Source of the DNA: Candidatus Sericytochromatia bacterium
Lineage (GTDB): Bacteria > Cyanobacteriota > Sericytochromatia > S15B-MN24 > VGJW01
Assembly: GCA_035285865.1 (NCBI GenBank)
Contig: JAYKHS010000010.1
Location: 5,862 to 69,861 of the forward strand
Direction: 5' to 3'
DNA: 64,000 nt
In this document: in pieces, positions 60,001 through 63,000 of the stretch
How positions within the stretch are numbered: position 1 is the first letter of the stretch
Layout: each line of letters opens with the position of its first letter
Position numbers: made by a program

Positions 60001-63000
60001 TAGTCCGCCCAGGCCTGTTCGATCTTGAGTTCGCCGTCTCCCGAGTTGGCCTGGATCTGGGCCCCGTACTCGTACTCGATCTCGCTGCTGAAAAGCAGGT
60101 TGTCGTGCAGATAGCTCGACGTCTGCAAGATCAGGCGATGCGCCTTGAAGGTGCTGCGGCCACTGAAGGGCTGGACGAACTCGTTGTCGAAGTACCCGCC
60201 GATGCGGGACTGGGCGCGACGGTCGAAGGAGGTGATGTTGCGACCGCCAGGTCCCGAGGCCGAGGTCCGATCCTGCAGCGACCCGGGGGCCGGCACCGAT
60301 CCGGAGGTGCGCCTGGCCGGACGCGTTGCAGGCCCGGAGGGTTGATCATGCAGAGCAGCCTCGGAGCCCTCGGACTCATCCACGTCCTCATCCTCGGAAT
60401 CTCGGGGCGGCAGCGCGAGTCTCCGGGCATCAGGGCCGTCAGCCCCCGGATCATCGGGACGAGAGGGAAGAACCTGTGCCGAGGCGGGCGCGAGGCAGAG
60501 GCCGGAGACCACAAGGGCGAGGACCAGGCAGGGACGCAGCATTCGGAAAACCCATCGCCAGAAACAAGCGACCAAGTCAGAGGACGTCAGACGTTTTACT
60601 GCAAATGCGACTCATTCGCAATAGCGGCATGGCTGCCAAGTGTCAGGGCGAAACCCGGATTCAGTCTCTGGAGACAGCCTCCCAACGGCATCCCAGGATG
60701 GCGCCAAGGGGCTCGGGAATCGCCGTGGACCCTACAAGGTCCCGGCTACCGGTCGACCGTGCACGGACTCAGAACAGCCCGTGGTTGAGCAGCAGGTGCA
60801 CGGCCACGCTTGCGGCATAGCCGAGGGCGATGGCCCACGTCCAGCGAAGGTGCCCCATGAAGGTATAGGTGCCTTTGGCCTGACCCATGAGAGCCACTCC
60901 GGCTGCACTGCCGATCGACAACAGGGATCCGCCGACACCTGCCGTGAGTGTCACGAGCAGCCATTGGCCAAGAGACATCTGGGGAGCCATGCCGAGTACG
61001 GCGTACATGACGGGGATATTGTCGATGACGGCCGATACGGGGCCGAGGAGGATGTTGGCCGTAGTCTCGCCCCAGGCGCCATACAGCCACGCTGACAGGC
61101 CTGCCAGGTAACCGAGGAAGCCGAGTCCGCCCACCGCCATGATGACGCCGTGGAAGAACATCAGCGTGTCCCATTCGGCCCGCTCCAGCTGCCGGTAGGA
61201 GTCGAACGAACGCGCCTCTGCCCTGCCGTCCACGGCAGGTGCCGCGAAAAGTTCATCGGGCTCGTTCGGCTGCAGCCCGTCACCGCGCAGTTCGGCTCGC
61301 TCGAGGAGGTACGCATAGATCTTCAGCAGGGCAAGGCCCAGCAGCATGCCTGCGACAGGCGGCAGGTGCAGCCAAATGTGGCCAAGGACTGAGGCCCCGA
61401 TTGTCAGGGCGAAGAGCACGACGACGGCGAGTGCCCCGGTTCTCGGCTCCTCCCGCCCGTCTTCGACTCCCGCAGGCTGGGAGGGGATGGCGCGGGCCAT
61501 CAGCAAAGCCGGCACCAGCCAGTTGACGAGCGCCGGAAGAAATAGCCGGAAAAACTGGGGGAAGGCCACGACACCCTTCTGCCAGACCATGAGCGTCGTG
61601 ATGTCTCCGAAGGGACTGAAGGCCCCGCCTGCATTGGCGGCCACGACGACGTTGATGGATGCCAGCGTCAGGAATGTTGCGTGCCCTCTGCCTGTCGCCA
61701 TGATGACGGCCCCGAGCACCAGGGCGGTCGTCAGGTTGTCGAGCACGGGTGACAGCAAGAAGGCCAGGGCACCGGTTGCCCAGAACAACCCCTTGAGTGT
61801 CAGGCCCCTGCCGACGAGCCACGTGCGCAGGGCCGCGAAGACCCCTCTGTCGTCCATCGTGTTGATGTACGTCATGGCTGACAGGAGGAAGAGAAACAGT
61901 TCGCTGAACTCGAGCAGGGTATGGCGGAAGGCCGCATTGACGGCCTCGGTCGCTCCGTGTCGGACGCCGAGCACGCCGACGAGAACCCAGATGAGCCCAG
62001 CGGCCAGCAGGACCGGCTTGGACTTGGCGAGTCGCAGGCGCTCTTCGGCAATGACCGCCGTGTAGGCCAGCACGAAGAGTGCGAGTGCCAGCCACGCCAG
62101 TGGTTCGGCGGTGAGGGAGAGGGCGTCGCCGGTTTCCGCCGCCAGCGCAGGCTGGGCAACAAGAACTCCCGCAAGGGGAGCCATCGTGGAATACGCCATG
62201 ACACCGGGTTCAGGAAGTGCTCTTGCGTTCATTGCTCTCGTCTCGACACCAGCCTACCGCAAGCGTAGCCGTCCCCATTTCGGGAGGGCCGCAAACATCC
62301 GCTCATGGTGCGCCCTGCAAACGGACCACGGGCTATTCCAGCGGTAGGCATCACTTCCCGTGTCCTTGATCGCCGAGAAGGTCAGATCGGGCGTAGCCTC
62401 GAAACGCAGCAAGGTCGCCACGCCATCAAGTGAATGCACGAAGCCTTCGACATCCGCCTGCGGCAGCAGCCGCACCACCACGGTGGCGGTGGCCGGCCTC
62501 AGACCAAGGTGCAGGGGACTCCCCCGTTGGATGTTGTAGTCCGAGAGCGTGCGGTCATACTCAAGCTCCTCGCCCGCGAAGATGAGCCTTTGATCCTCGG
62601 GAGCGATGCCTTCCTTGTCATGGATCTTGGCCTTGACGTTCTCGATGGTGTCGGAGGGTTCGACATCCAGCGTGAGGGTCTGTCCCTCGAGGGTCTTCAC
62701 GAAAATCAGCATGGCGTCTGCAGGGAGGGCCCCGCTGGCAAGCCACAGGCTGGCGAGCAGCAGACATCCGAGGAGACGGGTACACGGCGCATCGATTCGG
62801 GCACCCCTTTCATGGATGATGCAGCGAGTCTAACAGACGCTATGCGGCAGGCGAGCGAACAGGTATGCAGCGTGCGCCAAGGATTCGTTCGGAACCGGAG
62901 AAATCCTCGGCCGGTGAATGCCGCCCGAAGTACCAGGGGCTTCGGCTTCACCGGGGGCCCTGCGAGGTGGGCGTGACTGGATGCGAATCGGTGGCCTCGT

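Follow-up and report, generated by a model that had tools for sequence, protein, structure and literature searches.

The presence of a ubiquitin of eukaryotic type in a bacterial genome raises the question of whether the gene truly belongs to the bacterium, whether it still works there, and what such a protein could do for a prokaryotic cell. The gene, g00793, lies in the window, a 64,000-nucleotide stretch of a Candidatus Sericytochromatia contig (genome G000), and its ubiquitin domain is real. Residues 1-72 (62497..62712, minus strand; no LRGG) are identical to the animal polyubiquitin unit at 55 of 72 positions (76.4%) and match Pfam PF00240 from ATG 62712 with E 1.7e-25, in agreement with the ~76% of an earlier note on this locus, which was also right that the C-terminal Gly-Gly is missing: carrier sequence stands where LRGG would be. 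The 17 substitutions relative to animal ubiquitin include K48E, D52Y, G53D, K63R, T66P and V70G. The homologue search with the ubiquitin-bearing query, which gave eukaryotic polyubiquitins only among the 120 matches listed, serves here for the identity value alone.

The contig is bacterial and the gene sits, as described before, between a CitMHS/NhaD-type transporter (60769..62232, minus strand), a resident neighbour that provides an internal control for divergence, and a PIN-domain gene (63198..63614, plus strand); the GC3 of the ubiquitin domain (0.79) equals that of the transporter. A further neighbour is a tRNA-Val(GAC) at 63901..63976 (minus strand), the likely integration site. A degenerate duplicate of its 3' end and flank is found at 62925..63005 (81 nt, 79% identical), resembling an att scar, and the genome contains no further copy of this sequence. 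The distance from the tRNA-Val to the CitMHS match is 622 bp in the related genome G024, as against 1800 bp in the window. The PIN gene is 78% identical to one in another relative, G014, where it lies 3.2 kb from the ubiquitin gene; the neighbours there are PIN/HTH genes, and a PD-(D/E)XK gene in G024. Three plasmid records were matched, no phage match was found, and neither a promoter nor a terminator consensus was found.

Is the window copy functional? The frame 62254-62829 (minus strand) is open over 191 codons, 152 of them counted from the inner ATG 62712, and contains the reported hydrophobic leader ending in ADA directly before Met1. A start codon for this leader does exist, at ATG 62792, 11 nt behind a Shine-Dalgarno-like GAAAGGGG (62804..62811, minus strand), so that the earlier statement that the leader has no in-frame start is correct as to the frame but overlooked the start itself. 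The signal-peptide coding stretch (62713..62792, minus strand) has 80 nt rather than the 81 nt (27 codons) between ATG and Met1 in G014 and G024, and this shortfall of a single base puts the ATG in a different frame from the ADA cleavage site and the hydrophobic core. In the related populations X3 and X4 one additional base near 62782 gives an in-frame leader, and contigs of X2, X3 and X4 carry a separate +1 frameshift at codon 57. A consensus error, suspected before, is not borne out by contigs of X1, which are identical to the window at every base of 61200-62650 and 62626-63761, leader frameshift included, X1 being the likely source run and thus a second assembly rather than independent evidence. 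At the other end, the extension had been called unrelated, whereas residues 73-119 (62356..62496, minus strand) are the beginning of the carrier domain of the relatives; homology to the G014/G024 beta-sandwich then stops, 47 residues into that domain, and only the read-through tail of 33 codons plus stop (62254..62355, minus strand) is unrelated sequence. The truncation junction is bridged by X2 and X3 contigs and the 3' truncation is common to G000 and related runs. The runs compared were X1 to X4.

The rate of change points in the same direction. The ubiquitin gene differs from X3 at 54 of 625 nt, the CitMHS gene at 19 of 1060 (Fisher p 8e-11), and dN/dS against related populations is 0.89 (18 non-synonymous and 7 synonymous changes; not distinguishable from neutrality, p 0.82, but different from 0.11, p 5e-7), a value taken from 25 substitutions in codons 49-128 among the 40 listed of 270. 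The window copy thus appears to evolve neutrally, and is very probably a decaying pseudogene, the remnant of a Sericytochromatia gene that would have come in on a small island at tRNA-Val. It matters solely as a dated example of gene loss.

What the gene encoded has to be read from its intact relatives. Ubiquitin is carried by four of 47 Sericytochromatia genomes, as counted before. In G014 and G024 the sequences and AlphaFold2 models bear out the architecture given in the note: a signal peptide (AEA/M), ubiquitin without Gly-Gly, a beta-sandwich and a membrane hairpin, with mature fusions of 313-328 residues containing membrane helices. G006, grouped with them earlier, is different, a lipoprotein with ubiquitin inside. 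Identity to eukaryotic ubiquitin is 78-94% in the intact relatives (78% in G024), and the ubiquitin fold and sequence (PF00240) are present while the exposable LRGG end needed for conjugation is missing in every Sericytochromatia copy. Between G014 and G024 dN/dS is 0.11 in ubiquitin and 0.44 in the carrier, which indicates purifying selection on the ubiquitin. In AlphaFold2 models of the intact family the ubiquitin part has pLDDT 80-92 in most blocks and superimposes on the ubiquitin structure with Z 16.7 and rmsd 0.5 over 73 residues; strands 104-222 and 306-339 surround helices 232-248 and 256-266, and hydropathy peaks in G014 fall at 7, 230 and 255. The carrier domain matched no Pfam or NCBIfam family and nothing above 0.77 in the ESM Atlas; modelled alone (poorly, pLDDT 47) it gave generic beta-sandwich matches (best Z 6.4, rmsd 3.2, 118 aligned). 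A HMMER search of representatives returned 11 matches, four family members and seven long proteins around an Asp-rich repeat, and a metagenome scan found the carrier at one locus among at least 599 stretches.

These data support the view that the intact relatives encode a horizontally acquired, predicted Sec-exported, non-conjugatable and membrane-anchored ubiquitin; the same proposal made earlier for the window gene holds for G014 and G024 and fails for G000, a neutral remnant. Sericytochromatia cells are possibly diderm. With a hairpin in the inner membrane of such a cell the predicted topology may hold ubiquitin in the periplasm, away from the eukaryotic cytosol. A conserved SAC cysteine in the G014 protein may be a lipidation site. 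No second protein with the hairpin or lipobox-like anchor was found among the G000 ORFs, which gives no support to the anchor as a general sorting signal. The IPTL-CTERM motif (PF18203 or TIGR04174) had no match in the G014 or G024 proteins and exosortase (PF09721) was found in none of four genomes searched (G000 being 83% complete), which does not speak for IPTL-CTERM/exosortase sorting of the two proteins.

The design is far from confined to this lineage. A scan of GTDB gave at least 477 ubiquitin-like stretches, and the best 80, picked by similarity and exact 8-residue patterns, comprise 61 prokaryotic genes and 19 that are contamination-like or unclear. A signal peptide ends at the ubiquitin Met1 in 57 of the 61 (54 by rule, 3 by eye). 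Carriers among the 54 scanned include 11 autotransporters, 7 IPTL-CTERM, 3 SLH and 1 T9SS proteins. LRGG is lost in 56 of the 61 and kept in five. The loci belong to Pseudomonadota, Verrucomicrobiota, Bacteroidota, Bacillota, Actinomycetota, Lentisphaerota, Kiritimatiellota and Vulcanimicrobiota as well as archaea, among them cultured isolates with Mb-scale contigs, and GC3 tracks flank GC (rho 0.87, n=61). Ubiquitin of eukaryotic type, exported and mounted on scaffolds of the surface or envelope, is thus a widespread prokaryotic module, of which G014 and G024 seem, from their sequences, to be members and G000 a broken one. This overturns the idea of a second bacterial lineage, the first outside gut Bacteroidales. 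The I44-patch residues L8, I44, H68 and V70 are retained in 90-98% of the 61 loci, a conservation that is partly circular given how the set was selected. Of 21 hand-picked pairs, 19 have a ubiquitin dN/dS no higher than 0.11; in 14 of 16 the carrier is clearly less conserved than the ubiquitin. In a FastTree of 70 columns without BfUbb, prokaryotic and eukaryotic rows interleave and 50 of 75 inner branches are open, so that single and multiple acquisitions are indistinguishable.

Passages of the literature treat a bacterial ubiquitin of eukaryotic type as something rare, Bacteroides being 'one of a few bacteria' (PMC5705921) or 'the only bacterium known' (PMC6194340), and our literature search for exported eukaryote-type ubiquitin in prokaryotes found only this case. 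The present data show instead an exported module that recurs, under selection, in archaea as well as in free-living aquatic, soil and rumen lineages. A near-eukaryotic ubiquitin on another carrier, the automatically annotated 'ubiquitin family protein' WP_013483628.1, is encoded on plasmid pRUMAL01 of Ruminococcus albus 7; our literature search found no study of it.

What is the role of such a protein then? In the account that we favour, to which we assign as a whole a probability of roughly 0.45, the window gene is the decaying remnant of a lineage-specific carrier of the widespread module, and the module a putative mimic or decoy. The gene would reach a Sericytochromatia genome within a small island inserted at tRNA-Val. 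The intact protein would have its Sec signal peptide cut just before Met1, as the AEA/M site suggests; the ubiquitin, lacking Gly-Gly, would be linked by its C-terminal end to the modelled beta-sandwich, which the modelled two-helix hairpin would hold in the membrane. This geometry would be that of a mono-ubiquitylated substrate, one which E1 could not activate and deubiquitinases could not cut at Gly-Gly, while its binding surfaces are kept. We tentatively propose mimicry of a ubiquitylated protein as the most likely job; the partners would be ubiquitin-recognising proteins of eukaryotic grazers, hosts or neighbours of these microbes. The benefit would be conditional, and the gene therefore patchy, mobile and often lost, as in the Sericytochromatia family (broken in G000, G015, P0126 and P0127). 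A parallel exists in the secreted ubiquitin-extension effectors of plant-parasitic nematodes, described as having a signal peptide followed by ubiquitin and a C-terminal extension and as acting on a foreign organism (PMC5705921), although these are eukaryotic and have the extension cleaved off (PMC5705921), whereas the prokaryotic form has lost LRGG and its extension is a predicted membrane anchor. It is a more doubtful proposition that many phyla and archaea repeatedly took ubiquitin as a permanent, deubiquitinase-proof 'already ubiquitylated' envelope badge, changing how protists and other eukaryotes handle the cells after contact or ingestion. If true, this would be a general cross-kingdom mimicry not described before, of which BfUbb would be a divergent offshoot and the Sericytochromatia carrier an illustration of gain on islands and loss when pressure lifts. 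What recognises ubiquitin outside the prokaryotic cell is a question testable in cultured strains.

The main alternatives to mimicry concern the same exported protein. One, which seems to us unlikely, is an interbacterial weapon or defence like BfUbb, in which the ubiquitin fold, freed by proteolysis or in vesicles, would bind to a target in the periplasm or on the surface of bacteria, or else would sequester such toxins. The model for this is BfUbb, which is reported to kill related bacteria by way of SusCD uptake and PPIase binding. BfUbb and BoUbb of Bacteroides are described as eukaryote-derived proteins that lack Gly-Gly, have their signal peptide removed at Met1 and occur patchily in a variable region (PMC3352274, PMC5705921, PMC11467351). 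The AEA/M junction of G014 and G024, out of frame in G000, would be cleaved at the same point; a PPIase in the B. fragilis periplasm is inhibited by BfUbb, according to PMC5705921 and PMC11467351; stand-alone secreted forms occur in 5 of 61 loci, including Dyella and Collimonas; and in G000 and G014 the gene lies among toxin-antitoxin genes. Most class members are tethered, however, and the Sericytochromatia form is fused to a beta-sandwich and hairpin, not a stand-alone 76-residue protein. Moreover, BfUbb, according to PMC3352274 and PMC5705921, is 63% identical to human ubiquitin and has a terminal Cys, which G000, G014 and G024 lack, while many class members are 90-99% identical to eukaryotic ubiquitin; bovine ubiquitin is given there as having no antibacterial activity. 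The host also differs, being free-living and aquatic here, and the G000 copy is a pseudogene. The role of a diffusible toxin like BfUbb fits poorly with the tethered G014/G024-type protein, which lacks that terminal cysteine.

The other, improbable in our judgement, is a structural cap: ubiquitin would be kept because a small N-terminal domain that folds fast and resists proteases aids export, folding or stability of the carrier, and it would have no ubiquitin-specific partner. It nearly always stands at the mature N-terminus of unrelated carriers, copies drift in unbiased HMM samples (one marine family ranges over 61-93% identity with a median of 83, and another falls as low as 39%), and the frequent loss in the Sericytochromatia family would fit as well. 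Against this, L034, L052, L057 and L016 consist of ubiquitin plus an anchor or of ubiquitin alone, leaving nothing to cap, and surface residues, among them D21, K27, E51, D58, N60, Q62 and T66, are invariant in 61 of 61 loci of the biased set.

A reading in which translation from the inner ATG gives G000 a working ubiquitin-like protein of the cytoplasm is largely refuted. The 152-codon frame is open, and an operon with E1, E2, JAB and RING-like genes lies on another contig, C14, reminiscent of the Ub-E1-E2-RING-Rpn11 cluster of Caldiarchaeum and of bacterial operons (PMC4197634). But no Shine-Dalgarno sequence precedes that ATG, there is no terminal Gly, the gene appears neutral and three other runs carry the codon-57 frameshift. 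Linked E1, E2 and JAB genes are absent beside the ubiquitin gene in G000, G014 and G024; we rejected a tie to the C14 operon, which has its own small ubiquitin-like ORF, with E2 kept in 8 of 8 genomes of the family, six of them without exported-type ubiquitin. Conjugation systems as presented in PMC4197634 are cytoplasmic, operon-linked and Gly-ending, whereas ubiquitin of the window type is predicted to be exported, unlinked and non-conjugatable.

Finally, eukaryotic contamination or chimeric assembly is refuted for the window: eukaryotic ubiquitin contigs do pile up at 62516-62703 and break unitigs there, and 19 of the best 80 GTDB matches are contamination-like or unclear, but X2 and X3 contigs span the ubiquitin part with bacterial flanks (61710-62710, 62236-62860), GC3 is host-like, G014 and G024 carry the same fusion, and 24 of the 61 class members come from contigs of 100 kb or more, a warning that ubiquitin matches in prokaryotic genomes are not always contamination.

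The 191-codon open frame on the minus strand of the window (62254–62829) encodes, from an ATG at 62712, a ubiquitin domain (Pfam PF00240, E = 1.7e-25) in which 55 of 72 residues are those of the animal polyubiquitin unit (reference from protein P0090) and from which LRGG is absent, so the near-eukaryotic ubiquitin without a Gly-Gly end described in an earlier note is indeed there. That note also suspected a broken copy, and an out-of-frame leader, loss of part of the carrier (the domain behind ubiquitin) and a neutral dN/dS establish the decay: the gene is a pseudogene. The leader has an ATG at 62792, 80 nt upstream of ubiquitin Met1 and with a Shine-Dalgarno-like GAAAGGGG before it. 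The leaders of the intact genes in two other Sericytochromatia genomes, G014 and G024, have 27 codons (81 nt), so the frames of this ATG and of the hydrophobic core differ by one base. The leader therefore has no start in frame, as previously noted, although one exists a single base off. The C-terminal extension is unrelated only over its last 33 codons, since carrier homology runs to residue 119.

A consensus error as the cause of the break is contradicted by contigs of run X1, identical to the window over 61200–62650 and 62626–63761, although X1 is a possible source of the assembly and this agreement is not independent. In related populations sampled by other runs (X2–X4), an extra base near 62782 brings the leader into frame in X3 and X4; the X2 contig shows the state of the window here, less surely at a depth of 4.2. 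All three carry a one-base insertion at 62543, in ubiquitin codon 57. The 3' junction of the truncated gene is spanned by contigs of both X2 and X3, hence the truncation predates both frameshifts. Between X3 and the window 54 of 625 nt differ in the ubiquitin gene vs 19 of 1060 nt in the CitMHS transporter gene (Fisher p = 7.6e-11). The dN/dS of 0.89 against related populations, calculated from 25 substitutions in codons 49–128 (18 non-synonymous and 7 synonymous) among 40 listed of 270, is compatible with neutrality (p = 0.82) and incompatible with the value for the two intact genes, 0.11 (p = 5e-7). V70, G53, D52, T66, K48 and K63 are lost from the domain, which forms the longest end branch of the ubiquitin tree (0.27).

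The gene is neighboured by CitMHS, a PIN gene and tRNA-Val, and GC3 of its ubiquitin codons (0.79) equals that of CitMHS. At 62925–63005 lies an 81-nt duplicate, 79% identical, of the tRNA-Val 3' region, with no further copy in this genome. The distance from tRNA-Val to the CitMHS match is 1800 bp in the window vs 622 bp in the syntenic gap of G024, of the same genus, which contains neither ubiquitin nor PIN; the ubiquitin gene of G024 is on another contig. G014, which belongs to a different family, has a PIN gene 3.2 kb from its ubiquitin gene, and this PIN gene shares 78% identity with the one in the window. We infer that the gene came on a small mobile island and decayed later. No antitoxin ORF was seen in the islet beside the PIN gene (63198–63614), which may also be decaying, with a one-base insertion at 63558 in X3 and X4.

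Ubiquitin occurs in 4 of 47 genomes of Sericytochromatia, as had been reported, and the carrier in three (G014, G024 and G015), the fragment in the window falling below threshold. The fourth ubiquitin, in G006 (same order), is a separate case rather than another copy: a lipoprotein (L004:1243–1974, minus strand; same ORF in L029) in which a ubiquitin, 92% identical, interrupts a domain. In the gene upstream the flanking domain is repeated but lacks ubiquitin (weak match), and in a paralogue (L134) a different sequence takes the place of ubiquitin. The sequence, architecture and selection of the intact proteins are established. They comprise 340 aa (G014) and 355 aa (G024), with signal peptides ending AEA and ubiquitins 87.5% and 77.8% identical to the animal one. 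Behind ubiquitin comes a domain rich in strands, which bears an Asp-rich DxDxDG loop; then follow one hydrophobic helix, RRRK, another helix with SAC at its end, a linker of Pro and Ser, and the last strands. AlphaFold2, run on four sequences, was confident for the ubiquitin part (Z 16.7 and rmsd 0.5 against ubiquitin), gave pLDDT ~50–75 for strands 104–222 and 306–339, and modelled both helices with low confidence. The carrier matches no known family, and a fold search gave no clear match. The positive-inside rule would place ubiquitin and sandwich on the outer side of the cytoplasmic membrane. SAC, which resembles a lipobox, is kept in all seven family sequences spanning the site in frame; no exosortase was found in the four genomes searched. 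Between G014 and G024 dN/dS is 0.11 for ubiquitin and 0.44 for the carrier. The family is often broken: G000 (the genome of the window), G015, P0126 and P0127 are damaged, P0128 and P0137 are without the N-terminal part, and P0136 and P0125 are whole.

The proposal of a second bacterial lineage with ubiquitin does not survive a GTDB scan with the G014 domain, which matched at least 604 stretches, at least 477 encoding a relative. Among the best 80 examined, 61 prokaryotic loci were kept, isolates and archaea included; 19 were set aside as polyubiquitin or ribosomal-fusion contamination or as leaderless and unclear (13 on contigs <3.5 kb). Five single leaderless genes on 6–24 kb contigs binned with prokaryotes (L021, L039, L055, L073, L078) probably come from giant viruses or eukaryotes. 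Of the 61, 24 sit on contigs of 100 kb or longer, including isolates of Dyella, Limnohabitans, Acidovorax, Loktanella, Neptunomonas, Cohnella, Saccharibacillus and Ruminococcus. A signal-peptide-like leader ends at Met1 in 57 (54 by hydropathy and a small-residue rule, 3 by eye); the others are the G006 lipoprotein, one protein without leader and two marine archaeal proteins (L006, L013) whose N-terminus is presumably pilin-like and whose near-perfect ubiquitin lies inside the protein (dN/dS 0.015). Anchors recognised among the 54 fusions scanned are an autotransporter barrel (11), IPTL-CTERM (7), SLH (3) and a T9SS tail (1), and 7 of 28 scanned have choice-of-anchor U; five of the 61 consist of a signal peptide and ubiquitin with nothing else, and five retain LRGG. 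GC3 (0.17–0.97) tracks flank GC (rho 0.87). Identity to animal ubiquitin has a median of 93%, ubiquitin dN/dS is ≤0.11 in 19 of 21 hand-chosen, partly overlapping pairs (0.22–0.24 in two Acidovorax-group pairs), and ubiquitin is clearly more conserved than its carrier in 14 of 16 (equal in two), the identity and conservation figures being biased upward by hit selection. In HMM searches free of this bias, the genus to which Dyella sp. OK004 belongs has it in 4 of 9 genomes (94–99%), the family that includes the Luminiphilus match in 13 of 151 (14 matches at 61–93%, median 83; every one has a leader, one of these being cut to 7 codons) and the R. albus 8 family in 6 of 151 (39–93% for five, one not aligned). 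The module is thus patchy; some lineages conserve it strongly and in others it drifts.

The Dyella group (L016, L025, L061, L062, L108–L111) consists of stand-alone secreted ubiquitins, with 94–99% identity to animal ubiquitin in those measured. In four the stop directly follows L73 (two with GG codons beyond the stop), three retain LRGG and one ends in LRGY. Two Methanotrichaceae secreted proteins (L059, L068) begin with ubiquitin and one of them has SdrD B-like repeats, and Pseudoalteromonas shioyasakiensis replicons encode diverged ubiquitin domains (47–51%) inside Ig-like or tandem-95 repeat proteins.

What is the role of such a protein? The intact forms are probably exported and cleaved at Met1, tethered to the membrane and not conjugated. 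Ubiquitin without Gly-Gly should withstand E1 and deubiquitinases. Joined via its C-terminus to the carrier, with Met1 and lysines free and the I44 patch conserved, it would resemble a mono-ubiquitylated protein. We tentatively favour a mimic or decoy role toward eukaryotes (probability about 0.4), the partner itself being speculative; however, the G014/G024-type carrier may never leave the periplasm. An interbacterial role like that of BfUbb, the secreted ubiquitin of Bacteroides fragilis (PMC3352274, PMC5705921, PMC11467351 and PMC6194340), seems unlikely to us. The gene in the window shares the plan of BfUbb, as the earlier note held, but is not a member, since BfUbb is stand-alone with a terminal Cys and this gene has neither feature. 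That ubiquitin acts as a folding cap, without any partner, is likewise unlikely.

The significance of the finding rests on the widespread exported ubiquitins and the new carrier, not on the copy in the window. This copy belongs to a broad module of which we found no published description in the literature searched, which covered few subscription papers; passage searches of PMC11354881, PMC4197634, PMC1949818 and PMC3417536 returned nothing on exported bacterial ubiquitin fusions. Some members are already named by automatic annotation.

The E1-E2-JAB operon of the same genome (RING-like, E1, small ubiquitin-like ORF, E2, JAB; L089:5819–9069, minus strand, contig C14) is unlinked to the ubiquitin gene, and the small ubiquitin-like ORF that it includes ends in EAGA; its E2 is found in 11 of 47 class genomes and all eight of the family. 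Elsewhere in the window, 55962–60575 encodes on the minus strand a porin-like protein, an FMN-binding protein, a PepSY-TM/BNR protein and a LigB dioxygenase, with a plus-strand ORF that we take from its motifs to be ApbE-like; the block looks like a flavinylation/electron-transfer module.
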